From: an uncultured bacterium
GTDB lineage: Bacteria > Actinomycetota > Acidimicrobiia > Spongiisociales > UBA5794
DNA length: 64,000 nt
NCBI GenBank assembly: GCA_963801165.1
Contig: CAWDDT010000003.1
Span: forward strand, 147,350 to 211,349
Direction: 5' to 3'
Shown: one piece after another, positions 17,736 through 52,481 of the stretch
Layout: every line of letters starts with the position of its first letter
How positions within the stretch are numbered: position 1 is the stretch's first letter
Made by a program: the position numbers and the translations under genes
Notes under the pieces: generated by a model
Database searches by the model: none
The model's input: the letters and a program-made list of their open reading frames with translations, nothing else
What the model was told of the DNA's origin: nothing

Positions 17736-17753
17736 ATCCTCGATAATCGATCA
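17736..17753 (-). promoter_or_regulatory. Regulon operator copy 1, in the spacer of the sugar ABC promoter
   Basis: The minus strand reads TTGGAT-GATCGATTATCGAGGAT-TATAGT (17-bp spacer); the 18-mer is identical to 33939-33956. Confidence 0.75.
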
Positions 17754-29767: not shown

Positions 29768-29772
29768 CCGGG

Positions 29773-33902: not shown

Positions 33903-33956
33903 TTGACGCGACCATGTCGAAATCCGTAGTGTTATGGGTGATCGATTATCGAGGAT
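33903..33956 (+). promoter_or_regulatory. Promoter TTGACG-18-TAGTGT followed by regulon operator copy 2
   Basis: TGATCGATTATCGAGGAT at 33939-33956, at the predicted transcription start. Confidence 0.78.
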
Positions 33957-34175
33957 CGCCGTGTGCCAACGTCGAGAGTCAACAGATCCACCTGATTCTC
34001 AGGCCTCGAACCTCGTTCCCGCGGCTTTCAGCAAAGCCTGTCTTCACCCCGTATCGCGTGATGGTGGAGGGCACGACAATCCTCGGGTACCCGAGACAAG
34101 GGGGGTTCACTCGTAGTTCTGCGCCCCTGTGGGCCTTCGGACACGCACACGTTGGACAGGAAGGAGATTTGCCGT

Positions 34176-35930
34176 ATGGCAGACACCAGCAAGGTCGTCG
34201 CTCAGTTCTTGGGTGACGAGAGCTTCCCCATCGAGTGGGAAGACGAGAAGGAAAAGGATCTCTTCTGGGTCTATGACGACCTGCATTGCCCGAGGCCCGT
34301 GTCGCCGATGTACTACGACATCGCGGTCTGGACTCTGACGTGCGATCACATGTTCCGCCGCTTTGGCACGCCCTTTGCGTCGGATTGGATCGCCAAGGTC
34401 GTCAACGGCTATCTGTACACGGCCGCCGTTCCCCCGGACCCGGATATGGCTGTACCGGCGGGCGAGTTTGGCAACATGTACTACCCGCGGGTTCCCAGGG
34501 ACGACCCGGCGTACGCCTCCAAGATCGGTGCCTACCTGGGCGCGGTGCTGCCTGTGTACGGCGCCAACTTCCCCGACTGGTGGCATGACCGGCTCGTGCC
34601 CGAGATGAGCAAGAACCTGGCTTATCTCGAGGACAAGATCGACAACTGGGAGGCCATCTCGCTCATGGAGTGGGCTGTGATCCTCGAAGACGCGATCGAC
34701 ATCCTGGATCGTCACTGGAAGATCCACTGGATGCTCAACTTCGCCCAGCTGTCATCGACCCTGGCGCTGCGGGGGGCCCTCGGTGCTGCGCTCGGTGGTG
34801 ACGACAAGGTCACCAAGAAGCACGAGGAGATCCTCGGCCGTCTCCAGAACTCGTCGTCGGACCGCAACTGGGACGCCATTGGTGTTCTCGTTGGTCTCAA
34901 GGACGAGGTCAAGGGCGACCCGACGCTCAAGGAGGCGTTCAGCAACGAGAGCGGCGCTGAGATCCTGGCTGCGCTGCAGGCCACCGATCGGGGCCGGCAA
35001 TTCCTCGACGGCGGGCTCAAGGGCTACCAGCGCGAGTTCGGCTGGCACGCCGTGTGGAGCCACGAGTTCATCTACCCGTCGCGTTTCGAGACGCCGGAGC
35101 CGGTGCTCGACGTGATCAAGGGCTATCTCGACTCCGACTACGACCACAAGGCGATCGTCGCCCGGCTGGCCGAGGACATCAAGAAAGCCTCGGAGGAGCT
35201 CCTCGACGGGATTCCCGACGGCGATGCCAAAGAAACGCTCAGGGGGGCCAACGCGATCAACCTGAGAATCGCTCCGCTCACCCCCGACCATCACTTCTAC
35301 ATCGATCAGGGCACCCACCAGCACGTGCGGGTGGTTCTGCTCCGCATTGGTCAGAAGCTGGTCGACATGGGTGCTCTCACCGAGCCCGATGACACCATCT
35401 ACCTGAAGTACCAGGAGCTGCGTTATCTGATGGGTGACCCGGAGCACTTCGATGCGAAGAGCATCGTCGCCGCACGCCGGGCTCAGCGTGCCGAGGACGA
35501 GAAGATCCGTCCCCCGGACTTCATCGGCACCGCCACCGAAGACCAGCTCCAGTTCCCGTATCTGAATCTGTGGGGCTTCCCCGAGAAGCTGCAGTTCGAT
35601 ACGGAGACCAAGGGCAGGGTCGAGGGTCTCGGCGTGTCTCCCGGCGTGGTCGAAGGCACGGCCAAGGTGGTGGCATCGCCGGCGGAGTTCGACCAGGTCA
35701 AGCACGGCGACATCCTGGTGTGCCAGATGACGAACCCGGCGTGGACCCCGCTGTTTGCCATCATCAGCGGCATCGTCTGTGACGCAGGCGGCATGGTCGC
35801 ACATCCGGCCGTCATGGCTCGTGAGTTCGGTATCCCGGGGGTCACGGGCACGGGTGTGGCCACACGTGAGATCAAGACCGGTGACAAGCTGCGCGTCGAC
35901 GGCACCAACGGCGTGGTCGAGATCCTCTGA
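34176..35930 (+). CDS. PEP-utilising enzyme family protein: substrate domain plus C-terminal phospho-His swivel domain, no ATP-grasp
   Basis: C-terminal GVSPGVVEG...GDILVCQMTNPAWTPLF...GGMVAHPAVMAREFGIPGV...VDGTNG; no N-terminal GGK ATP-grasp motif. Confidence 0.85.
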   Translation: MADTSKVVAQFLGDESFPIEWEDEKEKDLFWVYDDLHCPRPVSPMYYDIAVWTLTCDHMFRRFGTPFASDWIAKVVNGYLYTAAVPPDPDMAVPAGEFGNMYYPRVPRDDPAYASKIGAYLGAVLPVYGANFPDWWHDRLVPEMSKNLAYLEDKIDNWEAISLMEWAVILEDAIDILDRHWKIHWMLNFAQLSSTLALRGALGAALGGDDKVTKKHEEILGRLQNSSSDRNWDAIGVLVGLKDEVKGDPTLKEAFSNESGAEILAALQATDRGRQFLDGGLKGYQREFGWHAVWSHEFIYPSRFETPEPVLDVIKGYLDSDYDHKAIVARLAEDIKKASEELLDGIPDGDAKETLRGANAINLRIAPLTPDHHFYIDQGTHQHVRVVLLRIGQKLVDMGALTEPDDTIYLKYQELRYLMGDPEHFDAKSIVAARRAQRAEDEKIRPPDFIGTATEDQLQFPYLNLWGFPEKLQFDTETKGRVEGLGVSPGVVEGTAKVVASPAEFDQVKHGDILVCQMTNPAWTPLFAIISGIVCDAGGMVAHPAVMAREFGIPGVTGTGVATREIKTGDKLRVDGTNGVVEIL

Positions 35931-40940: not shown

Positions 40941-40992
40941 TTGACGACTGCATGGCCGAGTCCGTATCCTCAAGTAATCGATTATCGAAGAT
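40941..40992 (+). promoter_or_regulatory. Promoter TTGACG-18-TATCCT followed by regulon operator copy 3
   Basis: TAATCGATTATCGAAGAT at 40975-40992 in the divergent E1 / Tm-1-like intergenic region. Confidence 0.78.
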
Positions 40993-41168: not shown

Positions 41169-42449
41169 ATGGCAACGGTTGCTCTCCTGGGAACGCTCGA
41201 TACCAAGGGTGAAGAATACGCCTACATGCGCGCCCGCGTTGAGCAAGCCGGGTCTGCGGTGCTCATGATCAACGCCGGGGTCATGGCCGATCCCGACTAC
41301 CGCGTCGATTTCACGAGAGCAGACGTCGCCGCCGCGGCGGGATCCGACCTGGGAGAGCTGACGGCTGCGGACCGGGGCCGGGCCGTCGCCATCCAGGCGA
41401 GAGGGGCAGCGGCGATCGTCAGGGAGTTGTTCGTCGCCGACCGTGTCCAGGGCCTCCTCGGCATGGGCGGTTCCGGGGGATCCTCGATCGTCAGCACTGC
41501 GATGCGTCAGTTGCCAATCGGTGTGCCGAAGCTGCTCGTATCCACCATGGCCTCGGGCGATACCTCTCCCTATGTGGACATCTCGGACGTCACCATGATG
41601 TACCCGGTGGTGGATCTCGCCGGCATCAACCAGCTGTCGGCGCGGATCCTGGCGAACGCGGCGGCCGCCATCTCCGGTATGGCACGTGGTTACGAGGCCT
41701 ACCACCGCCCCGACAGTGGGCGCCCGCTCGTCGGGGCAACGATGTACGGCACGACCACCACGTGTGTAGATGCTGCCCGCGAGTGGCTCGAAGAGCACGG
41801 CTACGAGGTGCTGGTGTTCCACGCCACCGGTCCCGGTGGCAGATCGATGGAGGCTCTCATGGAGAGCGGCCACATCACCGCAGCACTCGATGTCACGACG
41901 GCCGAGCTGATGGGTGAGATCGCCGGCGGCACGATGACGGCAGGACCGGATCGGCTCGAGACGGCGGGCAAGCTCGGGCTCCCGCAGGTCGTCGCACCCG
42001 GCGGCACGGATCAGATCGCCTTCCGCCCTCCGAGCGCGGTCCCCGCCGACTTTCGGGAGCGCCACTCGTATGAGCACAATCACGCCATCACCCTCGTCCG
42101 TAGCAACGCGGAGGAGATGGCGAGCTTCGGTCGTCTGTTCGCCGGGAAGCTGAACCGGGCGACCGGACCGGTAGCGGTGTTCGTCCCGTTGCGCGGTTTC
42201 TCGGAGTACGACGCCCCTGGTGGGGTCTTTTGCGATCCCGTCGCAGACCAAGCCTTGATCGAAGCATTGCGCAACCATCTCGACCGCAAGGTGGAGCGGA
42301 TCGAGATGGATACCCACATAAATGATCCCGAGTTTGCCGTGGCGATGGCTAGGAAACTGGACGAGCTGTACCACAGTTGGGGCCCGATACCGGGCGATCG
42401 GGCGCGTGGCGATATGGTAAGTCGGCCCAAGGAGGTTTCAGATGTTTGA
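41169..42449 (+). CDS. Tm-1-like ATP-binding domain protein (UPF0261)
   Basis: GTLDTKGEE, GGSGGS, LPIGVPKLLVSTMASG, TMYGTTT, FHATGPGG, HINDPEFA. Confidence 0.9.
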   Translation: MATVALLGTLDTKGEEYAYMRARVEQAGSAVLMINAGVMADPDYRVDFTRADVAAAAGSDLGELTAADRGRAVAIQARGAAAIVRELFVADRVQGLLGMGGSGGSSIVSTAMRQLPIGVPKLLVSTMASGDTSPYVDISDVTMMYPVVDLAGINQLSARILANAAAAISGMARGYEAYHRPDSGRPLVGATMYGTTTTCVDAAREWLEEHGYEVLVFHATGPGGRSMEALMESGHITAALDVTTAELMGEIAGGTMTAGPDRLETAGKLGLPQVVAPGGTDQIAFRPPSAVPADFRERHSYEHNHAITLVRSNAEEMASFGRLFAGKLNRATGPVAVFVPLRGFSEYDAPGGVFCDPVADQALIEALRNHLDRKVERIEMDTHINDPEFAVAMARKLDELYHSWGPIPGDRARGDMVSRPKEVSDV

Positions 42450-42460
42450 AGGGATCATCG

Positions 42461-43177
42461 ATGGCTGACAACACCGAGCGTCGTTCAGATCCGGTTGCCC
42501 GCAGCGTATTGAGCGAGCAGGTCAAGGACCGGATCCTGCAGTGGATTCTCGAGGGCGAGCTTGCCCCCGGTTCACGCATCATCGAAACCCGTGTCGCCCG
42601 TGAGCTCGGCGTCAGCCAGGCCCCGGTGCGCGAGGCGCTGCGCGACCTGACGACGCTCGGCGTCGTCGAGATGCGACCGTACCGCGGGGCCAGCGTTCGC
42701 AAGCCGAGCAAGAGCGATCTCGTCGAAGCCATGGAGGTCCGCGGCGAGCTGGAGGCGCTGGCTGCCCGGCAAGCGGCGAGACGCATCAGCGCCAAAGAGA
42801 TCGAGGAGCTGCGCACCCTGATCGACGGGATGCATGAGATGGCCGAGAAGGGCGACACTCACGGGCATGCGCAGCGGAACACAGCCTTTCACGCGACCGT
42901 AGTGAGGGCGGCAGGCAACAAGACGTTGACGCGTATCTGGTCGATGCTGGAGCCGTACGCCCGAACCTACGTCACCGCCATGGTGCCCGGTACCGATCTC
43001 GTCTGGCTCGGTGACCGGCACCTGGCGATCCTCGAGGCCCTGGTAGACCGCGACGAGGACCGTGCCGCCGAGACGATGAGAGCTCACGCCCGCGAGGCCG
43101 AGCAGCTCGTTCTGGCAATGGACGAGGCGGTGTTCGGCGATGCCGAGGAGGTGGCGTCGGTCGACGTTGGTAGGTGA
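42461..43177 (+). CDS. GntR-family regulator with FCD domain (FadR subfamily)
   Basis: GELAPGSRIIETRVARELGVSQAPVREAL, NTAFH, H..ILEAL...MRAH. Confidence 0.93.
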   Translation: MADNTERRSDPVARSVLSEQVKDRILQWILEGELAPGSRIIETRVARELGVSQAPVREALRDLTTLGVVEMRPYRGASVRKPSKSDLVEAMEVRGELEALAARQAARRISAKEIEELRTLIDGMHEMAEKGDTHGHAQRNTAFHATVVRAAGNKTLTRIWSMLEPYARTYVTAMVPGTDLVWLGDRHLAILEALVDRDEDRAAETMRAHAREAEQLVLAMDEAVFGDAEEVASVDVGR

Positions 43178-43277
43178 GAGTCGGTTCTCCTGGCGTGCGG
43201 TTGGTGTAGCGGGAGCTCCGGTACAGAGTTTCTAGCTAGCAAAACGGCTGCCAACGGCAGCATGAAAGGAGATATTG

Positions 43278-44159
43278 ATGTTGCAGCTCTCCGAGGAGTT
43301 CTCAGGAGGCACTGCCCGGTTGCGCTTCGACGTGCACGGATCCGAACCCCGTGCGCACGTTCTGGAGGACATGAACTTCCTCAACTACCGCCTGGCCTCC
43401 GTGACCATCGAGCCGGAGGTGACGCTTCCGGCGCCCGACATCGTTTGGCATCAGGACGGTGAGAAGTCGATCTCATACGACGGTGCGCAGATGACATTCG
43501 TCGGCGATTGGGAACCCGGCCCGCTGCAGAAGGTCATCGTGACCGTTCTGGCCTTGAAGATGGAGGCCGAGGGTCTGCACCCGTTTCACTCCGCGGCCGT
43601 CAACTACAAAGGCAGGACCATCCTCTTCCTGGGCGGTGAATCCAACCACGGCAAGAGTATGGGACAGATCGAAGCGTGCCGCCGTGGAGGCCTGCTCGTC
43701 GCTACGGAGACCACCGTGATCAACGAGGACGGCGTGGCGGTGATGGGCTCTGAGGACGTGTTCCTGCGCAAGCGCGCCAAGGGGACCGAACGTGCTGACA
43801 AGGCATCCCCCAACAAGGGAGTTGAGAAGTTCTTCGGCACCATGCCGACGTGGGAGAGTTTCGAGGGCCCGACCCGCGTCGATACCGTGATCGTGCCTGC
43901 CATCGACGGCAACTACGAGCCGGCCACCACGGAGTTGGGGGCGTTCGAAGCCCAATTCCAGACCCTGCACAGCCTCCAGAACTACTTCCTTCTCAACGAG
44001 CTGCTGGCGCCGGGGCATGTGATGCCGATCGTTGATACGGAGGAGCTGCGGGCAAAGCGAGCCGACTTCGCTTTGCGTTTTCAGGGGCCGCGTCCGTACT
44101 ACATGATCCGCGCCGCTGATCCGCAGGTATTGCTCGACGAGGTAGACAAGGTTCTCTGA
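43278..44159 (+). CDS. HPr-kinase-related P-loop protein of unknown function
   Basis: FHSAAV...ILFLG-GESNHGKS (Walker A) followed by LVATE where HprK has LVADD; AAAGGAG RBS. Confidence 0.65.
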   Translation: MLQLSEEFSGGTARLRFDVHGSEPRAHVLEDMNFLNYRLASVTIEPEVTLPAPDIVWHQDGEKSISYDGAQMTFVGDWEPGPLQKVIVTVLALKMEAEGLHPFHSAAVNYKGRTILFLGGESNHGKSMGQIEACRRGGLLVATETTVINEDGVAVMGSEDVFLRKRAKGTERADKASPNKGVEKFFGTMPTWESFEGPTRVDTVIVPAIDGNYEPATTELGAFEAQFQTLHSLQNYFLLNELLAPGHVMPIVDTEELRAKRADFALRFQGPRPYYMIRAADPQVLLDEVDKVL

Positions 44160-44169
44160 GAGGCGACGA

Positions 44170-45039
44170 ATGAATCAATTCGAGTACGCGCGGCCGGACA
44201 CGGTTGAGGAGGCCGTCAGCCTGCTCAACGAATACGGTGCCGATGCCAAGATCCTCGCGGGAGGAACGGACCTGGTCATCGAGTTGCGGAACCGCTGGTC
44301 CGAGCCGAAGGTGGTCATCGACGTCAAACGGATCCCGGAGTTCGCTCCGGCAATCACAGAGCACGACGGAGTGGTATCGATCAGCGCCGGCACGGTAATG
44401 GCGGATCTCACCGCCAGCGATCTCATCCAGACCCGCTTCCCGGCCTTAGCCGAAGCCGCGGTCGTGGTGGGTTCGGTGCAGATACGGGCTCGCGCCACCC
44501 TGGCCGGGAACATCTGCAACGGCTCGCCGGCCGCCGACACTTCACCGCCTCTGCTCGTGTACGACGCCGTGGTTGTTGTCGGCGGGCCAGCGGGGGTCCG
44601 CCGCATCCCGATCGACGATTTCATCGTCGGGCCCGGAAAGACCGCGCTCGAGCGTGGCGAGCTGGTGCTGGCGATCGACCTGCCGCTCCCGGCGGGTGCT
44701 TTCGGGGCGGCCTACACGAGGCTCACCCGGCGTCGTGGCACCGACCTGGCCTCGATAACATTGTGTTGTAGCGTCGACGGGGACGGTAACACCCGGCTCG
44801 CCTACGGCAGCGTCGGGCCACGCGCCTTCCTGGTCGTCGACGATTCCGGGGTCCTCGCCGATCCGACGCTGCCCATCGCCGACAAGACAGAAGCGCTTGA
44901 CCGGATGTTTCATCAAGCGAGCCCGTCTCCGAAGTCGCTGCGGGCGAGCCCCGACTACCGGCTCGCCATGTTGCGGGTACTCGGCGCCAGGGCTCTGGAT
45001 ACCGCGATAGACCGAGTGACGAAGGAATTGGTCAGATGA
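44170..45039 (+). CDS. Xanthine-dehydrogenase-family FAD-binding subunit (enzyme 2)
   Basis: LAGGTDL, QIRARATLAGN, GSPAAD, RASPDYR. Confidence 0.92.
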   Translation: MNQFEYARPDTVEEAVSLLNEYGADAKILAGGTDLVIELRNRWSEPKVVIDVKRIPEFAPAITEHDGVVSISAGTVMADLTASDLIQTRFPALAEAAVVVGSVQIRARATLAGNICNGSPAADTSPPLLVYDAVVVVGGPAGVRRIPIDDFIVGPGKTALERGELVLAIDLPLPAGAFGAAYTRLTRRRGTDLASITLCCSVDGDGNTRLAYGSVGPRAFLVVDDSGVLADPTLPIADKTEALDRMFHQASPSPKSLRASPDYRLAMLRVLGARALDTAIDRVTKELVR

Positions 45040-45515
45040 CTCAAATGATCACAATCAACGTGACCGTCAACGGGCGTCCTCGGACGCTGGAGGTCGCGGC
45101 GAATCACACGCTTCTCGAGGTGTTGCGTGACGACATCGATCTGACAGGCACCAAGGAGTGTTGTGTCGTAGGCGAGTGCGGTGCCTGCACCATCATCGTG
45201 AATGGACGTGCGATGAACTCGTGTCTGATGCTTGCGGTCGAGGTGGACGGTGCTGATGTGATCACCGTCGAGGGCCTGGAGACCGGGGGTGGGCTCAGCC
45301 CGCTGCAAGATGCCTTTCTGGCAGATGGGGCTACACAGTGTGGTTTCTGCATACCCGGCCAGCTCATGGCCGCGACCGCGTTGCTGATGCGGAACCCTGA
45401 TCCCACGATCGAGGAGATCCAGGAGGGGTTGGCGGGGAATCTGTGCCGGTGCGCCGGCTACGAACAGATCACCCGTGCCGTCCTCGATGCCGCACGGGAG
45501 GTCGTCGATGCTTAA
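45036..45515 (+). CDS. Xanthine-dehydrogenase-family 2x[2Fe-2S] subunit (enzyme 2)
   Basis: CCVVGECGAC...SC, QCGFC, NLCRC. Confidence 0.95.
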   Translation: MTQMITINVTVNGRPRTLEVAANHTLLEVLRDDIDLTGTKECCVVGECGACTIIVNGRAMNSCLMLAVEVDGADVITVEGLETGGGLSPLQDAFLADGATQCGFCIPGQLMAATALLMRNPDPTIEEIQEGLAGNLCRCAGYEQITRAVLDAAREVVDA

Positions 45516-47760
45516 CGTTGGTGCCTCGCAACGTCGCGGTGGCGGTTATGGCCGGGTCACCGGCCATCAGGAGTACGTGGCGGACATCAAGATCAACGAT
45601 GTGCTCCATGTCAAGCTGATCACGCTCGATGTCGCTCGTGCCCGGATCTTGTCGATCGACGCAAGCGAGGCCGAGCAGGTTCCCGGCGTCGCATTCGTTT
45701 TCACGCCGGACGATCTCCCCAAGCCGATGCCGCGCTTTGGCCCGCAGTTCCAGGACCGCCCGGTACTCGCCGACGGGGAGACGAAGTACCACGGCGAGCC
45801 GGTCGCTGCCATTGCCGCAGAGACGAAGGATGCTGCCGAAGAGGGCGCGCGGCGGGTCAAGATCGAATACGAGAAACTGTCTGACGGTGTTTTCTCGGTG
45901 GCGGCTGCGCTGGCACCCGATGCGGTGCTCGTTCAGGATCCGTCGATCCGCCCTGCGGGCGATCCCCTGGCACAGACCAACATCGTCAGCGAGAAGCATT
46001 TCGGCTGGGGCGATATCGAGGAGATGGCGGACGAATCCGATCTTGTCCTCGAGGACAACTACCAGTTTCCGATGGTGACGCATTTCGCCATCGAGCCGCA
46101 TGCCTTCATGGCAGCTCCCGAGGATGGTGGTATCGCCATCTGGAGCACGATCCAGCATCCCTACCTGCTGCAAAAGATCATGGCGAAGATGCTCGGTCTG
46201 CCGTTGTCGAGGGTGCGTGTCTACGCACCTGATCCCGGCGGAGGTTTCGGCGGCAAACAGATCCCCAAGTACGAGCCGCTGGTCACATATATGGCGCTGA
46301 AAGCCGGCCGTCCCTGCAGGCTCGTCTTGTCGTTGGACGAGACGTTCCTGCTGGTGCGCCGCTCCTCCGCCGAGATCCGGGTACGGATCGGCCTGGATTC
46401 CGAGGGACACTTCAAGTTCGAGGACATCGAGACCAACTTCCTGGTCGGTGCGTATGTCGACATCGCCGACCGGGTCGTCGGCAAGTCCAGCTATTCGGCA
46501 GCCGGACCGTACCGGGTGCCCGCCGTCAAGATCATCGGGCGGACCATCGTGTCGCACACGATGCCGTCGACCGCCTTTCGTGGCTTCGGCATCCCCCAGA
46601 TCAGCTGGGCCCGCGAGTCGTTGATCGACGAGGCTGCGCTCCGGCTCGGCATCGACCGGCTCGAGATACGGCTTCGCAACCTGGCCCGTTTCGGTGAGGA
46701 GTTCATTCCGCTCGAGCGGGCCGACGGCGACTGGGAGCAGACCGTACGCACGGCGGCCAAGCGCATCGGTTGGGGCGACCCGTTGCCCTCCAACCGCGGC
46801 CGTGGCATCGCGGTCGGTCTCAAGTCCGGGCCGACCACCGGTCTGTCGTATTCGACCGTACGGCTCCTATTCGATGGCAGCGCAATCGTCTACGCCGGGA
46901 CATCAGACATGGGTCAGGGCGCCCGCACCATCTTTGCCCAGATCGCCGCCGACGAGCTCGGTGTTGACTTCGATCAAGTGCGTGTGGTGATGGGTGACAC
47001 AGCGACGGTGCCATATGACCAACAGACCTCGGCGAGCCGCTCTTCGGTGTTGATGGGAACCGCGGTGCAGCGCGCCTGTCAGGACGTGCAGCACAAGGTG
47101 GTGGCGATGGCGTCCGGTCTGTACGGGATCGAGGAGCGGGCCATCAAGTCCGAGGGCGGTGTGCTCATCTTGCCCGACCGTGAGGTCCCGCTGATCGAGG
47201 TGGTTCAGGAGGCCCTGGCCCCGCTCGGTGGCGAGGTGATAGGCAACGGCGAGATGCGCAAGAACAAGGACCCGAACCATCCCCTCGGTGGCACGGCGTC
47301 ATTCTTCGAGTTCAACTGCACCGCGTCGGAGGTCGAGGTGGATACAAATACGGGCCACGTGACGTTGATCAAGCACGTCAGCGTGGGCGACGTCGGCCGT
47401 TCCCTCAACCCGATGCAGGTGCGATCACAGGATGACGGGGCCGCCATTCAGGGTCTTGGACACACGTTGATGGAGCACTACATCTTCGACGACGAGGGCC
47501 GGGTGCGAAACATCGGCGCCATCGACTACAGGATCCTCACCAGCATGGATCTCCCGCTCGAATTGCACAGCGAGAGCATCGAGAACGCAGATGGTCCCGG
47601 TCCGTACGGGATCAAGGGTGTTAGCGAAGGCAGCCTGCTTGTGACTGCACCGGCGGTGGGAGCCGCTATACGGGACGCCACAGGAGCGGTGATTCGTGAC
47701 CTGCCCATGACCCCGCAACGGGTTTGGGAAGCTCTTCAGGAGGTGGAGAATGAACGCTGA
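45508..47760 (+). CDS. Xanthine-dehydrogenase-family molybdopterin-binding subunit (enzyme 2)
   Basis: GGGFGGK, AFRGFG, DMGQG, SASRS, GIKGVSE. Confidence 0.93.
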   Translation: MLNVGASQRRGGGYGRVTGHQEYVADIKINDVLHVKLITLDVARARILSIDASEAEQVPGVAFVFTPDDLPKPMPRFGPQFQDRPVLADGETKYHGEPVAAIAAETKDAAEEGARRVKIEYEKLSDGVFSVAAALAPDAVLVQDPSIRPAGDPLAQTNIVSEKHFGWGDIEEMADESDLVLEDNYQFPMVTHFAIEPHAFMAAPEDGGIAIWSTIQHPYLLQKIMAKMLGLPLSRVRVYAPDPGGGFGGKQIPKYEPLVTYMALKAGRPCRLVLSLDETFLLVRRSSAEIRVRIGLDSEGHFKFEDIETNFLVGAYVDIADRVVGKSSYSAAGPYRVPAVKIIGRTIVSHTMPSTAFRGFGIPQISWARESLIDEAALRLGIDRLEIRLRNLARFGEEFIPLERADGDWEQTVRTAAKRIGWGDPLPSNRGRGIAVGLKSGPTTGLSYSTVRLLFDGSAIVYAGTSDMGQGARTIFAQIAADELGVDFDQVRVVMGDTATVPYDQQTSASRSSVLMGTAVQRACQDVQHKVVAMASGLYGIEERAIKSEGGVLILPDREVPLIEVVQEALAPLGGEVIGNGEMRKNKDPNHPLGGTASFFEFNCTASEVEVDTNTGHVTLIKHVSVGDVGRSLNPMQVRSQDDGAAIQGLGHTLMEHYIFDDEGRVRNIGAIDYRILTSMDLPLELHSESIENADGPGPYGIKGVSEGSLLVTAPAVGAAIRDATGAVIRDLPMTPQRVWEALQEVENER

Positions 47761-48640
47761 GTTGGAGGTCGGGCCGGTACGTGACATGCCGGCCGGTAAG
47801 GTCGTCGAGGCGGCTCAGCTCGTCGCGACGGGGAAGCAATACTCCCTATCTGTTCCCCGTTTCCCCGGGATGCCCCTCTTTCCGGGACATCCCCCGTTCC
47901 AGGTCGTCAACTATCGGACCCCACCCGGCATCGTCGCCGGCAGCGTCGAGCCGTGGGGACCACCCAACGAAGTGAACCTCGGCTACATGGCCGAGTACCT
48001 GATGGCCTGCTCGCACTCGGGAGCGCACATCGACGGGCTGGCCCACATGACCATCGGGGAGGACAATCATTGGTACGGCGGTGGTAACACCAAAGAGCAC
48101 ATGACCGACCACGGGCCCAAGTTCGGTGATGCCTCCAAGCTGCCGACGTTCTTCACCCGCGGCGTGTTGCTCGACCCGCCGACCTACCGCGGCATCGATG
48201 CGCTGCCAGCCCACGAGCCCGTCGGCGCCGACGAGCTGCAGGCGGTCGCCGCGGCTCAGGGGGTCGAGGTGCGGCCGTGGGACGTGGTGCTCATCCGCAC
48301 CGGCTATCTCAAGTACTGGCCCGACGCCGAGCGGATGAACGAGCACCTGACTGCCGGTCCGGACCTGTCGGCGGCAGAGTGGTTGCTCGAAAAAGGGGTG
48401 GTTGCCACGGGCACCGACACCGAGACCTACGAGGTCATGCCGGCACCCGATCGTGGCTGCCCGGCCAACCCGCAGCCGGTGCACACCAAGCTGCTCATCG
48501 AGAACGGCATCTACCTGTTGGAGAGCATCTATCTCGAGGAGCTCGCCCGTGACAAGGTCTACGAGTTTCTCTTTGTGATGCTGCCATTGAAGATCAAGGG
48601 GGCGACCGGGTCCATGGTCGATCCTCTCGCGGTGGTGTGA
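47750..48640 (+). CDS. Cyclase-family metal-dependent amidohydrolase (kynurenine formamidase/isatin hydrolase-like)
   Basis: HSGAHIDGLAH (HxGTHxD-type), LIRTG, PVH..LL..NGIYLLE, PLKIKGATGS. Confidence 0.88.
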   Translation: MNAELEVGPVRDMPAGKVVEAAQLVATGKQYSLSVPRFPGMPLFPGHPPFQVVNYRTPPGIVAGSVEPWGPPNEVNLGYMAEYLMACSHSGAHIDGLAHMTIGEDNHWYGGGNTKEHMTDHGPKFGDASKLPTFFTRGVLLDPPTYRGIDALPAHEPVGADELQAVAAAQGVEVRPWDVVLIRTGYLKYWPDAERMNEHLTAGPDLSAAEWLLEKGVVATGTDTETYEVMPAPDRGCPANPQPVHTKLLIENGIYLLESIYLEELARDKVYEFLFVMLPLKIKGATGSMVDPLAVV

Positions 48641-48641
48641 C

Positions 48642-49685
48642 ATGAGAGGTCTGGTCGTCACCGAACCGAATGTCTTTGGCATCGAGGACATACCCGAGCC
48701 GACCCCCGGACACGATGAGGTCGCGGCGCGGGTGCGCGCCGTCTCGATCTGCGGTACCGACGCCCATCTCATCGCCGGCCACTACCCGGGTTTCTGGCCG
48801 CCGAGCTTCCCCTTCACGCCGGGTCACGAATGGGCCGGTGAGCTCGTCGAGGTTGGTGCAGGCGCCGCGGCACTGGGATGGTCGGTGGGTGACCGGGTGT
48901 GCGGTACCTCTCACGACGCCTGCGGCTTCTGTCAGAAGTGTGTCGAGGGTCGGTACAACCTGTGCGAGAACTACGGGAACATGGATGTGCACAGGCAGTA
49001 CGGGCACAACTATCAGGGCTGTCTGGCCGAGTACGTCGTCCATGGGGTGAAGGCGATCTTCCCGCTTCCCGACGGGATGGATTTTGCAACCGGCGCCGTC
49101 GTGGATCCGGCATCGATCGCGCTCCACACCGCCAACCGTGGAGGAGTGAGGCCGGGAGACACGGTTGTCGTCTTCGGTCCCGGCCCGGTCGGTCTTCTCG
49201 CCGCCGATGCGGCGCGAGTGCGGGGCGCAGCACGGGTCATCGTTGTGGGGCGCGGCCAGCGTCTGGATCAGGCCGCCAAGATGGGCAACGAGACCGTCGA
49301 CTACACCGACGGTGACCCCGTAGGCGCGGTCCGGGCGCTGACCCGCGGGCTTGGTGCGGATGTGATTCTGGATTGCGCCGGGGTGCCGGAGACGTTTCAG
49401 TGGTCGATCCCTTCGCTGCGCAAGGGAGGGCGGATAGCGACGGTCGGAATCCCGGTCGAGCCGGTGGCTCTCGATTTCCAGGAACTCGTTCTCTACGAGA
49501 AGGAGATCGTTGGGGTGCGGGCGACGGCGGGGGAGATGAGGCACGTGCTGCCGCTGGTTGCCGACGGCAGGATCCGCGCTGCCGATCTGGTCACCCATCG
49601 CTTCCCGCTGGAGGAGTTCGCAGTGGCATTGGCGACTTTCAACGAGCGTCGTGACGGGGCCATGAAGGTGATCGTCGAGCCGTGA
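48642..49685 (+). CDS. Zinc-dependent alcohol dehydrogenase (MDR family)
   Basis: ICGTD, GHEWAG, CGFCQKC...C, GPGPVG. Confidence 0.93.
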   Translation: MRGLVVTEPNVFGIEDIPEPTPGHDEVAARVRAVSICGTDAHLIAGHYPGFWPPSFPFTPGHEWAGELVEVGAGAAALGWSVGDRVCGTSHDACGFCQKCVEGRYNLCENYGNMDVHRQYGHNYQGCLAEYVVHGVKAIFPLPDGMDFATGAVVDPASIALHTANRGGVRPGDTVVVFGPGPVGLLAADAARVRGAARVIVVGRGQRLDQAAKMGNETVDYTDGDPVGAVRALTRGLGADVILDCAGVPETFQWSIPSLRKGGRIATVGIPVEPVALDFQELVLYEKEIVGVRATAGEMRHVLPLVADGRIRAADLVTHRFPLEEFAVALATFNERRDGAMKVIVEP

Positions 49686-50203
49686 CCGACCACGACCGAC
49701 ATTTCCGGATCCTCGTGCTGTGTGCCGGCAACATCGGCCGTTCCCCGCTCGCCGGGGCCATGCTGCGGGCCGGGTTGGCCGACAGCCTGGGTGTAGCCGA
49801 ACGGGACCTCGAGATTGCCGGTGTGACGGTGGTCTCTGCAGGCACGGCCGCTCCTGAAGGCCACGCTGCCTCGGGCCGCGGGATGGTGCTGGCGGGGGAG
49901 AGGGGCCTCGACTTGACCGGGCACCGGGCACACCAACTCACACGATCCGATCTGAAGGCCGCCGACCTCGTGTTGTGTATGGACAACCAGCAGATCGCTG
50001 CGGTTGCGGAGTTGCTCCCGGATGCGGCCGGTAAGACCGAGCTGATCGCCGGGGATGGTCTCGAGATCCTCGATCCGCATCATCAGAGCGATGCCTTCTT
50101 CCGCGACATAGCCGGGCAAATCGAAGCCGCAGTGACGGCTCGAATCCCCGGCCTCCTGGAGCAGATCCATGAGCCGACCGGTCCGGCCGCGGGGTCGGAG
50201 TAG
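49682..50203 (+). CDS. Low-molecular-weight phosphatase family protein
   Basis: CAGNIGRS (CX5R), SAGT, ADLVLCMD, ILDP. Confidence 0.88.
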   Translation: MTDHDRHFRILVLCAGNIGRSPLAGAMLRAGLADSLGVAERDLEIAGVTVVSAGTAAPEGHAASGRGMVLAGERGLDLTGHRAHQLTRSDLKAADLVLCMDNQQIAAVAELLPDAAGKTELIAGDGLEILDPHHQSDAFFRDIAGQIEAAVTARIPGLLEQIHEPTGPAAGSE

Positions 50204-50287
50204 CCGTCGGCGATGGGCGATTCCTCTCTTGTTTTCGGTCCGACCTGCCCCGGCGATGTCGACGTGTTCTCGGCGCCGTCCGATCAG

Positions 50288-50338
50288 TTGACCCACCCGG
50301 CGACGTCCGATATTGTGACATAATCGATTATCGAGGAT
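50288..50338 (+). promoter_or_regulatory. Promoter TTGACC-17-TATTGT followed by regulon operator copy 4
   Basis: TAATCGATTATCGAGGAT at 50321-50338, 7 bp before the GTG start. Confidence 0.8.
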
Positions 50339-50345
50339 AGGGATT

Positions 50346-52481
50346 GTGACCTTCGTTTACGCTGTCGACCACCCGCACGGCTCACCGCATTCGGAGGTGG
50401 CGAATCTGATCGGGGGCAAGGCGGCAAACCTCGGCGTCATGACCAGGGACCTCGACCTCCCGGTGCCACCCGCCTTTGTCATCTCGACCGAAGCGTGCCG
50501 AAGGTATCTCGCTACGGGCTGGCCGGATGGCCTCGACGCAGAGATCGTCGAGCACGTCGGCAGATTGGAGCAGACAGGAGCCCGCGGATTCGGTGATACC
50601 GGCCGCCCGCTTTTGGTCAGTGTGCGCTCCGGTGCGCCGATTTCCATGCCCGGGATGATGGACACGATCCTCAACCTCGGGATCAACCCGGCGGTAGCGG
50701 AAGGTCTGGCCGCAAGCACCGGCAACAAGGATTTTGCCGCAGCCTGCTGGGACCGTTTCGTCAATCAGTATCAGGACGTTGTCGGTGAGCCTCCCCCTGA
50801 GGACCCGTGGCAGCAACTGAGGGCAGCGATCGAGGCAGTGTTCCGCTCCTGGAACAGCCCGCGGGCACGTACCTATCGAGCGCGGGAACGGATACCCGAC
50901 GACCTGGGCACCGGTGTGATCGTGCAGATGATGGTATTTGGCAATCTCGGTGACGACTCGGCCACCGGCGTTCTTTTCACGCGCAATCCGGCCACCGGTG
51001 AGAACTCCATCTACGGCGACATCATGTTCAATGCCCAGGGCGAGGACGTGGTAGCGGGCACCCACGAGACCGAGCCGATTGCGGTCCTTCACGACCGTAT
51101 GCCGGAGGTCGCCGACGAGTTGATCGGGTACGCCCGGGCACTCGAGAGGCACTACCGCGACATGTGCGACATCGAGTTCACCATCGAGGGCGGCAAGCTG
51201 TGGCTGCTGCAAACGAGGATTGGAAAGCGGAGCCCGCAGGCGGCGCTGCGGATGGCCATCGACATGGCCGAGGACGTCGGTTTCCCCGTCACCCGTGCCG
51301 AAGCCGTTGACCGCGTGGCATCGCTCCTGGTGCGGCCCCCGATGGCCGGCGCCAATCTGGGCCTCGACGCCACCCCGATTTGCGTCGGGCTCGGAGTATC
51401 GCCCGGGGTCGCCTCGGGGGGCGTCGCCACCACTCCAGAACAGGCGGTTGCAATGGCCGAGGCGGGCGAGCCCGTGTTGCTGGTGCGGAGAGAGACGTCG
51501 CCCGACGACGTTCATGGTATGGCGCGGGCAGTTGGCATCCTCACCGCAACCGGCGGGTTGGCCAGCCACGCGGCGGTGGTTGCTCGCGGCTGGGGTATCC
51601 CGGCGGTGGTCGGCGCCGCGACGATGACAGTCGTCGACGGTTCGGTGACGATCAGCGGCAGGACCTTTGCGCCGGGAGAAGTGCTCACGATCGACGGCAG
51701 CACCGGAGCGGTGTTCACCGGTGCGGTGGCCAGCGAGGCTCGGGTGGTTCCGGAGGCGGCGGTGCTGCTCGCATGGGCAGAGGATCTGGGCATCGATATC
51801 AGCTCCGGCGACGAGGAGACGGAAGTTGTCGAGGATGTCGCGTCGCAGGTCACCCGGGAACAGGTAATACATGCCCTTACCATCAAGGGTTTCGTCGTCC
51901 CCAACGATCTCGGCCCGGCGTTACTCACCTCGCCCGAGGTCGTGGCGGGCCTTCTCGACGAGGCGGTTGGGGACGGTCTGGCCGCGGTGATCGCCGGGTC
52001 GGCACTGGCCGGGATGTTCCAACTGACCGAGGACGGCAAGGCGCTCGGTCTGAAGCAGATCGCCGCCGACCGGGCAAGCTGGGGCGCTGACAATGCCGCT
52101 GTGGCGCTCGATGATCTGCTGCCGTTCGACCATAGGATGAAGCTGATCATGACCGGATGGCAGATGCGTGAGGTAGACGGGCAGCAGATCCTCAACGACC
52201 ACAGCGACGAGGCGTACGACGCGGTAGTGCTTGCAGACTTCCAGAGCCTCCATGAGGACACGTCGGCGTGGCTGGGCAGGCTCAGCGAAGGTCTGCCGCG
52301 GCTCGGCCTCTACCGCGACCGGCTACAGCGCGCCGGCGAGCGGGTGGCTGCCGGCGAGACCAACTACCTCGCCTCACCCCGGGTCGACAGCTTCCATAGC
52401 GTTTGGTTCGAGCTTCACGAGGATCTGATCCGCCTCGCCGGAAGGACCCGGGAGGAAGAAGCTGCAGCAGGCCGTGCGTAG
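50346..52481 (+). CDS. Truncated PPDK-like protein (ATP-grasp plus phospho-His domain) fused to a non-PPDK C-terminal domain
   Basis: GGKAANL, LLVSVRSGAPISMPGMMDTILNLG, QGEDVVAG, DIEFTIE, LQTR and GGLASHAAVVAR. No pyruvate TIM barrel; the tail ends DSFHSVWFELHEDLI. Confidence 0.85.
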   Translation: MTFVYAVDHPHGSPHSEVANLIGGKAANLGVMTRDLDLPVPPAFVISTEACRRYLATGWPDGLDAEIVEHVGRLEQTGARGFGDTGRPLLVSVRSGAPISMPGMMDTILNLGINPAVAEGLAASTGNKDFAAACWDRFVNQYQDVVGEPPPEDPWQQLRAAIEAVFRSWNSPRARTYRARERIPDDLGTGVIVQMMVFGNLGDDSATGVLFTRNPATGENSIYGDIMFNAQGEDVVAGTHETEPIAVLHDRMPEVADELIGYARALERHYRDMCDIEFTIEGGKLWLLQTRIGKRSPQAALRMAIDMAEDVGFPVTRAEAVDRVASLLVRPPMAGANLGLDATPICVGLGVSPGVASGGVATTPEQAVAMAEAGEPVLLVRRETSPDDVHGMARAVGILTATGGLASHAAVVARGWGIPAVVGAATMTVVDGSVTISGRTFAPGEVLTIDGSTGAVFTGAVASEARVVPEAAVLLAWAEDLGIDISSGDEETEVVEDVASQVTREQVIHALTIKGFVVPNDLGPALLTSPEVVAGLLDEAVGDGLAAVIAGSALAGMFQLTEDGKALGLKQIAADRASWGADNAAVALDDLLPFDHRMKLIMTGWQMREVDGQQILNDHSDEAYDAVVLADFQSLHEDTSAWLGRLSEGLPRLGLYRDRLQRAGERVAAGETNYLASPRVDSFHSVWFELHEDLIRLAGRTREEEAAAGRA

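Follow-up and report, generated by a model that had tools for sequence, protein, structure and literature searches.

The kinase VadK (Rv1127c) of Mycobacterium tuberculosis, described in 2026, is a virulence-linked enzyme of the tubercle bacillus that has, as far as the accessible parts of its report go, no known phosphoryl acceptor (Pascoe et al., EMBO Rep 2026, PMC13400623). There, VadK is shown, for M. tuberculosis only, to undergo ATP- and Mg-dependent autophosphorylation at His422, and it is reported to regulate methylcitrate-cycle flux and to bind enzymes, with no small-molecule substrate known. Evidence for this role comes from pull-down of methylcitrate-cycle enzymes and from flux changes, the methylcitrate genes themselves not being regulated transcriptionally (PMC13400623). 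The same text names Rv1126c as the operonic partner, which stays with VadK during purification up to a wash with 2 M NaCl, and gives it no role. Its accessible parts mention no fusions: the word "fused" is absent, and "fusion," in the 3 instances displayed, refers to an instrument (PMC13400623).

Other relatives of pyruvate, phosphate dikinase (PPDK) act on small molecules. HpeHI, CreHI, and PpsAB are described as two-component small-molecule dikinases, in which a partner of ~40 kDa consisting of an ATP-grasp only charges the histidine of the large component directly (Dexter et al., JBC 2025, PMC12167813, in the parts available). According to the available text of PMC9618137, the phosphatase HpeD (the equivalent of HpdD) removes the phosphate later in the Hpe pathway. 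The 3hpd cluster of Ensifer adhaerens HP1 contains, next to the Mo-hydroxylase HpdA1-4, orf9, a "pyruvate-phosphate dikinase," and orf10, a "PEP-utilizing protein mobile subunit"; in the available portion of that report the Mo-hydroxylase step genetically requires this dikinase-like pair, by a mechanism stated there as unknown (Wang et al., bioRxiv 10.1101/2020.01.08.898148).

Here we describe a gene from a window, i.e., the whole stretch of 64,000 nucleotides of uncultured bacterial DNA that was analyzed, whose predicted product joins the two mycobacterial proteins in one chain and whose operon contains a second phosphohistidine protein.

RESULTS AND DISCUSSION

Domain composition of the 711-aa protein

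The gene and the domains of its predicted product are as follows.

50346..52481, plus strand: 711-aa CDS joining a VadK-type ATP-grasp and His swivel to an Rv1126c-type tail (ORF and profile matches)
50346..51365, plus strand: PPDK-type ATP-grasp (nucleotide-binding) domain, residues 1 to 340 (Pfam, NCBIfam, and alignment to solved PPDKs)
51366..51797, plus strand: phosphohistidine swivel domain, residues 341 to 484, with the His408 codon at 51567-51569 in GGLASHAA (Pfam and alignment)
51807..51842, plus strand: disordered linker, residues 488 to 499, where mycobacteria split the gene (pLDDT <50; mycobacterial junctions)
51843..52079, plus strand: acidic winged-helix subdomain of the tail, residues 500 to 578 (MntR/MarR profile, fold search, and charge)
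52080..52478, plus strand: helical-bundle subdomain of the tail, residues 579 to 711, with the motifs WQ...NDHxDxxYD and DSxHxxWFELHE...R (conservation; generic bundle matches only)

The ORF opens with a GTG codon, a start backed by homologs that begin with MTxVYAFDH. Pfam recognized PPDK_N (PF01326, E 3.2e-48) and PEP-utilizers (PF00391, residues 375 to 454, E 5.8e-22) on the protein and no third family, the PEP/pyruvate barrel PF02896 in particular being absent. Conservation reaches 90% or more in 91 of the 340 columns of the ATP-grasp domain, where GGK25 and R94 of the ATP site are invariant, and residues G403, G404, S407, H408, and R414 of the swivel domain are invariant in 47/47 homologs.

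Canonical PPDKs, e.g., that of C. symbiosum (1DIK), resemble the first 480 residues of the protein; the solved structures match at E ~1e-121, with an alignment that stops at about chain residue 529, the start of the barrel linker. The protein differs from them in that the PEP/pyruvate TIM barrel is missing, the score against the canonical PPDK model TIGR01828 remains below the cutoff (520.4 versus 843.45 bits), and the regulatory threonine is absent. In PPDK, this residue is found two positions before the catalytic histidine (GGxTSH; its role is described in the available part of PMC12167813). The corresponding residue is Ala406 here (GGLASH408), and in the 47 homologs Ala occurs 36 times, Val 4 times, and Thr and Met 3 times each. 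An initial annotation of this DNA had seen an intact PPDK-type ATP-grasp and His domain with neither barrel nor regulatory threonine, and had considered the protein unlikely to act as a normal PPDK; these observations and this conclusion hold.

By contrast with the TIGR01828 result, the model NF004531 ("PRK05878," short PPDK/VadK) matched residues 19 to 481 with 511.8 bits, a whole-protein score above its cutoff of 456. As judged from these profile scores, the N-terminal part of the protein belongs with the short PPDKs of NF004531, a group known from M. tuberculosis under the name VadK. Like VadK, it has an ATP-grasp and a swivel histidine (His408, the equivalent of His422 of VadK), no barrel, and no threonine two positions before the histidine.

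The database name "pyruvate, phosphate dikinase" might suggest that we are dealing with an ordinary PPDK whose gene is truncated, decayed to a pseudogene, or mis-assembled. This is hardly conceivable in view of the 1117 near-length homologs that share the architecture and carry the same label, the confident AF2 model (pLDDT 90.9), and the GC3 of 0.79 in frame. Moreover, the genome contains two barrel-bearing enzymes, the only PF02896 proteins found in it, both encoded elsewhere (C5 and C11). For the whole family, the name pyruvate, phosphate dikinase that annotation pipelines currently assign is a misnomer.

An Rv1126c-type tail in place of the barrel

The region following the swivel domain had initially been taken as about 210 aa ending with DSFHSVWFELHEDLI. 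This delineation has to be corrected, as the tail comprises 227 aa (residues 485 to 711), and DSFHSVWFELHEDLI, at residues 681 to 695, is followed by 16 further residues. The proposal that the gene is a fused form of the mycobacterial pair of short ppdK and small ORF held up, in a comparison made with M. palustre and other mycobacteria rather than with M. tuberculosis. The tail is homologous to the 201- to 202-aa ORF located directly 3′ of the mycobacterial short-PPDK gene (35% identity over 206 aa, E 3e-35), and that ORF overlaps the short-PPDK stop codon by 8 nt in 7/12 loci and by 4 nt in 2/12.

Fusion is the prevalent arrangement. In 114 of 160 tail loci the tail is fused in frame to a VadK-type module, in 28 the VadK-type gene is a separate upstream frame, and in 8 more it is found elsewhere in the locus. 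Tail and VadK module are thus linked in 150/160 loci, whatever the context. A tail tree was built from 146 loci and the window, leaving out tblastn tail matches that covered fewer than 180 query residues or contained a stop codon; it was computed with FastTree (SH-like support, no bootstrap) and used for its two-clade topology only. Of the two major clades, the window's tail falls in one and the VadK/Rv1126c type in the other, a second difference from the mycobacterial system besides the fact that a single polypeptide is encoded in the window. On the basis of these alignments, the protein is of a fused VadK-Rv1126c type, with a tail predicted to replace the PEP/pyruvate barrel of PPDK by an acidic winged helix and a very conserved helical bundle. 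The fusion in the window and in more than 1000 "PPDK" proteins of the databases shows the Rv1126c-type partner to be an integral third domain, which also includes the best-conserved region of the protein.

Fold, charge, and conservation of the tail

No Pfam family matched the tail at an E value of 10 or below. Profile searches with its N-terminal part returned MntR, DtxR, and MarR chains with E values of 1e-4 to 1e-3, and VIA-align superposed this part on the MarR-type chain 7wze_A with a Z score of 11.3 (rmsd 1.8 Å over 71 residues). Foldseek of the tail against the PDB gave no match at E ≤0.001, the only rows being winged helices, and the wide VIA-align search yielded rows of MarR type together with generic bundles, e.g., the FAT domain of p130Cas at Z 11.5, a value below the level that would indicate more than a common helical arrangement. 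No HPt chain was among the best 50 VIA-align matches listed, in searches that used the whole tail as the query. Look-alikes of the tail in the ESM atlas are "hypothetical protein" clusters (0.90 and 0.89) and one cluster auto-named "Transcriptional regulator family protein" (0.87). Cluster names for ten free-standing tails were likewise uninformative.

A one-component transcription factor, whose winged helix binds DNA, e.g., the shared operator described below, under the control of the phosphohistidine module, would fit the MarR/MntR-type fold, the name of the atlas cluster at 0.87, and the HTH_IclR match (1.2e-5) of a free-standing paralog of the tail in the same genome. The charges argue against such a role. 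The winged helix has a net charge of -5 and the bundle of -10; helix 3, which occupies the recognition position, is not basic, its median charge being -2 and 0/47 sequences reaching +2 or more. In addition, the winged helix has no invariant column, VadK acts without transcriptional control of the methylcitrate genes (available text of PMC13400623), and the operon already has a conserved GntR/FCD regulator. We therefore consider a transcription factor very unlikely.

Conservation is concentrated in the bundle, which contains 21 of the 39 invariant residues of the protein, including H619, H684, and H691; 15.8% of its columns are invariant, versus 2.1% in the ATP-grasp. The invariant tail residues are also shared by the tail-bearing lineages that lack the 584-aa protein (see below).

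Operator and operon neighborhood

The elements relevant to the context of the gene are as follows.

17736..17751, minus strand: exact copy of the 16-mer, in front of the gene (16438-17661, minus strand) for an RbsB-like sugar-binding protein (motif search)
33941..33956, plus strand: second exact copy of the 16-mer, preceding the 584-aa gene by ~220 nt (motif search)
34176..35930, plus strand: inferred partner of 584 aa, RPH/HpeH-type substrate-binding domain and C-terminal His swivel (GGMVAH543), no ATP-grasp (Pfam and profile alignment)
40977..40992, plus strand: copy of the 16-mer, differing at 1 position, in front of the UPF0261 operon (motif search)
41169..49685, plus strand: UPF0261, GntR/FCD (42377-43177), unk294, Mo-hydroxylase FAD, FeS, and MoCo subunits (44170-47760), cyclase, and Zn-ADH, the upstream part of the conserved operon
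49682..50203, plus strand: low-molecular-weight Cys phosphatase (LMWPc), directly upstream of the 711-aa gene (Pfam)
50288..50316, plus strand: sigma-70-like promoter TTGACC-17-TATTGT (9/12 consensus positions; consensus match only)
50323..50338, plus strand: candidate operator 16-mer ATCGATTATCGAGGAT, with the palindromic core TCGAT-T-ATCGA (exact copy)

A putative promoter precedes the 711-aa gene, such matches occurring twice in 2.6 kb versus 0.3 expected. The candidate operator lies 6 nt past the -10 element and 8 nt ahead of the GTG start. In the window, ATCGATTATCGAGGAT has 5 matches, the fifth being at 29759 with 3 mismatches, versus 0.33 expected, and 0/100 shuffles gave 5; the motif is kept in 4 related genomes from 4 families. 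The initial annotation had proposed an operator common to the 711-aa and 584-aa genes. Exact copies are indeed found upstream of both, but the element is not private to them; its presence at five sites means that it marks a regulon rather than a private link between the two genes.

The window gene differs from VadK, which is encoded near prpDC, in its setting, namely, a catabolic operon for a Mo-hydroxylase that comes with a second swivel protein. The start of the LMWPc gene overlaps the ADH stop codon. In the sister genus, a non-homologous Y_phosphatase3 occupies the LMWPc slot. The Cys phosphatase is a recurrent neighbor of the VadK-tail gene, and a protein-phosphatase-type neighbor is directly adjacent in 9/80 and in 39/80 loci.

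Association with the 584-aa protein

The 584-aa protein has a PF00391 swivel domain (residues 517 to 587, numbered in a 592-aa frame) and aligns to the RPH, PigC, and PRK08296 models over residues 246 to 592 of the same frame, with an E value of 1.5e-38 for RPH positions 528 to 864. Its His543 is invariant in 33/33 sequences of the family. Within the window, 16 kb separate the two genes, and the same operator precedes both. A homolog of the 584-aa protein (55 to 67% identity) directly adjoins the tail gene in 8/80 loci and is one GntR gene away in a ninth. In Chloroflexota, both belong to a co-directional operon, UPF0261-584aa-GntR-unk294-Mo-hydroxylase-cyclase-ADH-VadK-tail, which is complete or nearly so in 3/6 loci and has the same gene order with gaps in the remaining 3.

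In a second class (n = 201 genomes), both genes are found in 42 genomes, the 584-aa gene only in 3, the tail only in 1, and neither in 155; these counts are to be read with the relatedness of the genomes within each sample in mind, and this class was centered on a genome chosen for carrying both genes. The independent distribution that would have spoken against a link was thus not found, as 42 of the 46 genomes with either gene have both. Within the window's own class, 7 of 8 genomes with the 584-aa gene also have the tail; conversely, 52 of 59 tail-bearing genomes have no 584-aa protein, and no 584-aa homolog occurs within 3 kb of the tail in any of 80 actinomycete (Nocardia/Mycobacterium-type) loci. 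The core function of the family therefore cannot depend on that partner. Furthermore, the Mo-hydroxylase co-occurs as well, i.e., co-occurrence extends to the whole operon, and it therefore demonstrates a shared pathway and not direct contact between the 711-aa and 584-aa proteins.

The domain inventory of the window's own genome is complementary. Its swivel genes number 7 and its ATP-grasp genes 6; a swivel with no ATP-grasp occurs solely in the 584-aa protein, and an ATP-grasp unaccompanied by a second substrate domain solely in the 711-aa protein. A free-standing ATP-grasp was found in none of 6 genomes (own and 5 others), and in these 5 others no ATP-grasp occurred in a frame shorter than 707 aa. 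Altogether, distribution, adjacency in two phyla, the operator, and domain complementarity support a functional tie between the 711-aa gene and the ATP-grasp-less 584-aa protein.

This complementarity bears on two other readings of the protein. It might be a self-contained three-domain dikinase, with the bundle as the second substrate site, at which either a small molecule or the side chain of a protein would be modified, the Cys phosphatase reversing the mark, and the 584-aa protein being a separate enzyme of the pathway. The status of the bundle as the most conserved part, the cotravel of tail and VadK module in 150/160 loci, and the two non-homologous aryl/Tyr-phosphatase families in the neighboring slot would all agree with this. 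Nevertheless, it would leave the 584-aa protein without any ATP-grasp in 6/6 genomes, the tail or bundle shows no homology to the RPH/HpeH-type substrate domain of the 584-aa family (hhalign probability 0.2%), and the fold search gave generic helical bundles only, which makes this reading rather improbable.

Alternatively, the protein might act, along the lines suggested for VadK, as a histidine (di)kinase with a regulatory function and not as a catalytic dikinase component. It would sense ATP via His408, its tail would bind enzymes of the operon and tune their activity posttranslationally, and the phosphatase would reset it. Such a role would parallel the autophosphorylation, enzyme pull-down, and flux change without transcriptional control reported for VadK (PMC13400623, in part). 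It is also in line with a family far more widespread than the 584-aa partner and with the protein-phosphatase-type gene next door in 9/80 and 39/80 loci. However, the gene sits in a catabolic operon otherwise devoid of an ATP-grasp for its orphan swivel protein, and 21 invariant polar residues in the bundle resemble a site of chemistry more than a variable target-binding surface. We regard regulation of this kind as possible but unlikely.

A possible split small-molecule dikinase

The reading that we favor, and hold to be moderately probable, is that the fused VadK-Rv1126c-type protein and the 584-aa protein together form a split small-molecule dikinase in a conserved Mo-hydroxylase pathway. 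Judging from 45 to 49% identity and conserved motifs, the ATP-grasp would use ATP and Mg to phosphorylate His408, as shown for M. tuberculosis VadK. In this lineage, the 711-aa protein would serve as the ATP-using component and the 584-aa protein as the substrate-binding component, whose His543 would receive the phosphoryl group, whether handed on by His408 or supplied in trans by the ATP-grasp itself. The initial annotation had suggested the first of these routes, a relay from ATP over the histidines of both proteins to the substrate; the known two-component dikinases follow the second (PMC12167813). A docking and hand-over site for the phosphohistidine domain would most likely be provided by the bundle of the tail, in which His, Arg, Asp, Asn, and Glu residues are invariant. 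By analogy with HpeHI, CreHI, PpsAB, and 3hpd, the 584-aa protein would then phosphorylate a hydroxylated, probably N-heteroaromatic, intermediate of the Mo-hydroxylase pathway, and the adjacent Cys phosphatase might later dephosphorylate the product or reset the phosphoprotein. All genes of the proposed pathway would be under one operator. It counts against the partnership that, in comparison with known systems, a two-component role would require neither a swivel histidine of its own nor a tail.

A further reading would make the bundle a new kind of phosphotransfer station. Phosphate would pass in a PTS-like relay from ATP to His408, to H619, H684, or H691, to His543, and finally to a hydroxylated N-heteroaromatic compound, and phosphorylation of the substrate would be needed for, or coupled to, its oxidation by the Mo-hydroxylase, with the Cys phosphatase closing the cycle. 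VadK and Rv1126c would then be a split remnant that has lost the catabolic acceptor. We consider this scheme improbable.

With regard to the favored reading, a split dikinase, the 584-aa protein is built like the large component of HpeHI, CreHI, and PpsAB, with a substrate-binding domain, a C-terminal swivel histidine, and no ATP-grasp (PMC12167813, available parts). The component genes are linked in both cases, the setting is catabolic, and a phosphatase takes part in the pathway (HpeD; PMC9618137, available parts). By contrast, the ATP components of those systems are of the PEP-synthase type and consist of an ATP-grasp only, whereas the 711-aa protein is of the PPDK type, with its own swivel histidine and a 227-aa tail; the pathway partner is a biotin carboxylase there and a Mo-hydroxylase here. 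Because it is more than an ATP-grasp, the 711-aa protein would be a variant that works like the two-component dikinases rather than a member of that group. Rifampin phosphotransferase (RPH), as described in the available text of PMC4844700 (Nat Commun 2016), likewise has three stations, namely, an ATP-grasp, a swivel histidine, and a non-barrel substrate domain, but in a single chain and with a substrate domain related to the 584-aa protein, not to the tail.

The operon context in soil bacteria, with an orphan phosphohistidine enzyme, a Mo-hydroxylase, and a recurring phosphatase, offers a setting in which to find the acceptor and the chemistry of this family. Among plasmid records, 0/93 carry a fused tail and none covers at least 80% of the query; no Ensifer adhaerens record is among the best 40 of the 93 matches listed. 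The likeness to the 3hpd cluster, in the portion of that report available (10.1101/2020.01.08.898148), lies in a dikinase-like pair combined with a Mo-hydroxylase step on a hydroxylated N-heterocycle and in a GntR regulator within the cluster. A split dikinase of the kind proposed here might thus provide a possible mechanism for the unexplained genetic need of a "PPDK/PEP-utilizer" pair in 3-hydroxypyridine hydroxylation.

A short dikinase module fused to a conserved tail

The gene under study opens in agreement with its homologs and is coding-like in composition (GC3 of 0.79, usual for coding frames here).

50346-52481, + strand: coding sequence of a 711-residue protein, GTG start, one long frame in the ORF listing

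The start is right, because homologs open with the same MTxVYAFDH. Pfam recognized PPDK_N and the PEP-utilizers mobile domain (residues 375 to 454) and nothing else, and the NCBIfam model NF004531 (PRK05878, 534 positions, titled 'pyruvate, phosphate dikinase') matched residues 19 to 481 with a score of 511.8 bits, above its cut-off of 456. The protein falls below the threshold of the canonical PPDK model, TIGR01828 (520 bits versus 843 required). Among solved structures, residues 1 to 484 matched the Clostridium symbiosum and plant PPDKs (E ~1e-121), with the alignment ending at about chain residue 529. The protein contains no PEP/pyruvate barrel (PF02896); the genome has just two, both on other contigs and in frames 961 and 882 residues long. 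The initial annotation was thus right in describing a short PPDK with ATP-grasp and His domains and no barrel, and also in noting that the regulatory Thr of GGxTSH is missing: the motif reads GGLASH408AA, and at that position 36 of 47 homologs carry Ala and 3 carry Thr. In the full-length structural model (pLDDT 90.9, pTM 0.67), residues 488 to 499 form the sole disordered stretch.

The C-terminal domain had been described as matching no known family, which held, and as about 210 residues long, which did not: it comprises 227 residues, with no match to any Pfam or NCBIfam model, for Pfam even with E-values as high as 10 admitted. When 1.84 billion cluster representatives were searched exhaustively by phmmer with this tail alone, 1371 proteins had E-values of 0.001 or lower and 781 of 1e-10 or lower, a mixture of ~205-residue and ~710- to 780-residue forms. 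Word-based searches, which scored 8000 candidates each, gave 1117 near-length and 1024 shorter matches; the shorter ones include many contig-end fragments and some that lie on long contigs. No fused tail was found in a plasmid collection (93 matching records, 0 covering 80% or more of the query).

An alignment of 47 tails revealed the motifs WQ...NDHxDxxYD and DSYHxxWFELHEDLI...GRxRxxEAAAGRA. AlphaFold2 modeled the tail from this alignment (pLDDT 94.6) as a winged helix at about residues 17 to 90 followed by a bundle of long helices at 98 to 223 (tail numbering). The winged helix resembles MntR/DtxR/MarR chains both by profile (E 1e-4) and by structure (Z ~11, rmsd 1.8 Å). The bundle returned generic four- or five-helix-bundle matches only, and Foldseek with the tail model gave no match with an E-value of 0.001 or below. 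Across the family, the helix occupying the recognition position is acidic (median charge -2, with 0 of 47 at +2 or more), and in the 711-residue protein the winged helix carries -5 and the bundle -10, which argues against DNA binding. Conservation is concentrated in the bundle: the last 133 residues hold 21 of the 39 invariant columns of the full-length alignment of 47 sequences, corresponding to 15.8% of bundle columns versus 2.1% of ATP-grasp columns and 0% of winged-helix columns. The invariant residues, which include H619, H684, H691, R659, R702, N617, D618, D621, D625, E689 and E692, are common to all lineages of the tail family, including those without the 584-residue protein considered below.

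A second, free-standing tail paralog of 246 residues is encoded elsewhere in the window's own genome (G000:C6:83804-84409; locus L165, 6673-7413), with no ATP-grasp gene nearby and next to a luciferase-like monooxygenase. As this paralog has clearer HTH matches (HTH_IclR, 1.2e-5), true winged-helix regulators may have been the ancestors of the tail family.

Fused and split forms of the tail

A scan with two tail alignments, limited to a single genome from each species, yielded 160 loci (80 nearest to the window and 80 nearest to the actinomycete subgroup), and a script checked each for a VadK-like N-module in the frame of the tail. The tail is fused in 72 of the 80 window-nearest loci (Acidimicrobiia, Chloroflexota and a few other metagenome-assembled genomes) and in 42 of the 80 actinomycete loci, mainly Nocardia. 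In 7 loci of the first set and 21 of the second it is a frame of its own, downstream of the N-module. The upstream module is absent from 18 loci, 8 of which have it elsewhere in the locus and 10 not at all; examples with the module downstream of the tail come from Gordonia, Streptomyces and Pseudonocardia.

In Mycobacterium and Mycolicibacterium the tail is an ORF of 201 to 202 codons (M. palustre L141, M. vulneris L118, L143, L150 and others, L numbers denoting loci fetched from relatives). Its start overlaps the stop of the short PPDK gene, at about locus positions 3001-3008, by 8 nt (ATGnnTGA) in 7 of 12 loci and by 4 nt in 2 of 12, an arrangement that is a sign of translational coupling. 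The gene break coincides exactly with the disordered linker of the window protein, and the window tail is 35% identical to the M. palustre ORF over 206 residues (E 3e-35). The earlier proposal that a mycobacterial short ppdK and a separate small gene are fused here is therefore borne out in M. palustre and the other mycobacteria compared.

According to the available text of a 2026 paper (PMC13400623), Rv1126c is the operonic partner of M. tuberculosis VadK (Rv1127c); co-expression raised solubility, and separating the two required a 2 M NaCl wash. VadK autophosphorylates on His422 in an ATP- and Mg-dependent manner. That text leaves Rv1126c without an assigned function and says nothing of fused forms.

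A FastTree phylogeny divided 147 tails between two clades, both at 100% SH-like support. The actinomycete clade has 69 rows; the Chloroflexota/Acidimicrobiia clade, with 78, includes the window, whose nearest row is L001 (73% identity). In a few clade 2 loci (L171, L061, L042, L046, L070, L074, L075, L078) the fused gene, VadK-tail, is broken into two frames, which may reflect frameshifts, decay or assembly errors; in L171 (3815-5533, - strand) the swivel domain is cut short.

A co-distributed putative partner with a complementary domain set

The partner proposed for VadK-tail is encoded 5' of it in the window.

34152-35930, + strand: frame of the 584-residue protein, start called at 34176 in databases

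Pfam detected a C-terminal swivel domain only. Residues 246 to 592 of the frame align to the substrate-binding and swivel part of the rifampin phosphotransferase, PigC/RedH and PRK08296 'hypothetical' models, and His543 is conserved without exception in 33 homologs. The protein is built like the large component of HpeHI, CreHI and PpsAB, the two-component dikinases presented in the accessible text of PMC12167813.

The initial annotation had also linked the two genes through a common operator, and an exact 16-mer indeed precedes each.

17736-17751 (- strand), 29759-29774, 33941-33956, 40977-40992 and 50323-50338: predicted operator ATCGATTATCGAGGAT, palindromic core TCGAT-T-ATCGA

The element precedes a sugar-binding-protein gene, a glyoxalase/molybdenum hydroxylase operon (3 mismatches), the 584-residue gene, a UPF0261 operon and the VadK-type gene, where it directly follows a promoter-like site. 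The exact 15-mer occurs in only three places in the 4.55-Mb genome (17736, 33941, 50323), and the 16-mer recurs beside the same genes in four related families. Judging from these occurrences it marks a small predicted regulon, with the GntR/FCD gene at 42377 as the obvious candidate for the regulator that binds it. A leader of about 220 nt (33957-34175) separates operator and start at the 584-residue gene, versus 8 nt at the VadK-type gene.

The two genes are not independently distributed. Among 201 genomes of the window's class, the tail is present in 59 and the 584-residue protein in 8, of which 7 also have the tail, as close fused orthologs; in the eighth (G126, 95% complete) no tail was found. 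Among 201 genomes of a Chloroflexota class, a sample centred on the genome of L051, which was picked for having both genes, 45 have the 584-residue ortholog and 43 the tail (both 42, only the former 3, only the tail 1, neither 155). Both samples consist of kin, so that their genomes are not independent. When on one contig, the genes of this class lie 2 to 11 kb apart. A homolog of the 584-residue protein (55 to 67% identity) lies within 4 kb of the fused gene in 9 of 80 loci (7 divergent neighbors, 1 co-directional neighbor and 1 a GntR gene away).

Six whole Chloroflexota loci display a co-directional operon: UPF0261, the 584-residue protein, GntR/FCD, an unnamed 294-residue protein, molybdenum hydroxylase subunits, cyclase, Zn-ADH and VadK-tail. 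Three are complete or nearly so, two have no call for cyclase or ADH, and in one the VadK gene is broken. The window retains this order at 41169-52481 with two differences, the 584-residue gene lying 7 kb upstream and an LMW phosphatase being inserted. In 28 of 80 loci the molybdenum hydroxylase large subunit is encoded no more than 4 kb away, and in four related genomes it lies ~3.6 kb from the 584-residue gene. As it travels with both genes, the evidence proves that the two proteins belong to one pathway.

Their domains are complementary as well. The window's own genome (98% complete) encodes swivel domains in 7 genes, ATP-grasps in 6 and barrels in 2; the 584-residue protein is its only swivel protein without an ATP-grasp, the 711-residue protein its only ATP-grasp protein without a second substrate domain, and no short frame encodes an ATP-grasp. 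All five further genomes examined repeat the pattern, and two of them have canonical PPDK and VadK-tail as their sole ATP-grasp proteins. From this complementarity we infer a direct phosphoryl hand-over between the two proteins.

The tail family is much wider than this partnership: 52 of the 59 tail-bearing genomes of the window's class lack the 584-residue protein, which was found near the tail in 0 of the 80 actinomycete loci. Unlike the 711-residue protein, which has its own swivel His and tail, the small components of HpeHI, CreHI and PpsAB are described in the same text (PMC12167813) as an ATP-grasp alone, with no swivel His and no tail. The tail bundle is unrelated to the RPH/HpeH substrate domain (hhalign probability 0.2%), and the available text of PMC13400623 describes M. 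tuberculosis VadK as a regulator binding methylcitrate-cycle enzymes. We therefore retain two alternatives to the hand-over: that the 711-residue protein is a regulatory kinase, as the description of VadK would favor, which we consider unlikely, and that it is a self-contained dikinase with the tail as a second site, which seems more doubtful still.

The proposed donor-acceptor pair resembles a published gene cluster. In Ensifer adhaerens HP1, orf9 ('pyruvate-phosphate dikinase') and orf10 ('PEP-utilizing protein mobile subunit') adjoin HpdA1-4 and are required for conversion of 3-hydroxypyridine to 2,5-dihydroxypyridine, with a role that 'remains to be clarified' in the text consulted (bioRxiv 10.1101/2020.01.08.898148). 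Judged by the published gene names, this 3hpd cluster likewise places a dikinase-like pair beside a molybdenum hydroxylase, and orf9 may be of the VadK type. The parent kinds are already in print, VadK in 2026 and two-component dikinases in 2025. In the searchable literature text, to which figures and supplements may add, we found neither the fusion of VadK to the Rv1126c module, nor the nature of that module, nor its pairing with an RPH/HpeH-type large component within a molybdenum hydroxylase operon.

Phosphatases and other neighbors

The commonest neighbor across all loci is Y_phosphatase3, present in 57 of loci L001 to L169 (37 directly downstream on the same strand) and the immediate neighbor in 9 of 80 and 39 of 80 loci of the two sets. 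It is also the phosphatase seen in Nocardia-type loci. In the sister genus it lies just upstream of VadK-tail (L161, 9522-10322, - strand), a slot that in the window holds an unrelated enzyme.

49682-50203: LMW-PTP, Cys-dependent, beside the VadK-tail gene

The change of family beside the VadK-tail gene looks like non-orthologous replacement of one function. In the Hpe pathway, as far as the accessible text of PMC9618137 describes it, the aryl phosphate made by the dikinase is later removed by a pathway phosphatase, and by analogy it is plausible that the window phosphatase dephosphorylates the pathway product. That it resets a phosphoprotein is equally plausible.

The 294-residue protein (43275-44159) has no Pfam or NCBIfam match and is kept at 67 to 73% identity in the equivalent position of the Chloroflexota operon. 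In one Chloroflexota genome (L172, 15052-17139, - strand) the first gene of the operon, UPF0261, carries a fused PEP_hydrolase-like TIM barrel (PF09370), a barrel not seen among the 24 window proteins scanned, the UPF0261 gene of the window lying at 41169-42449. The island contains two separate three-subunit molybdenum hydroxylases (30200-33848 and 44170-47760) with large subunits 34% identical, of which only that at 44170-47760 shows synteny with the VadK-tail operon of other phyla.
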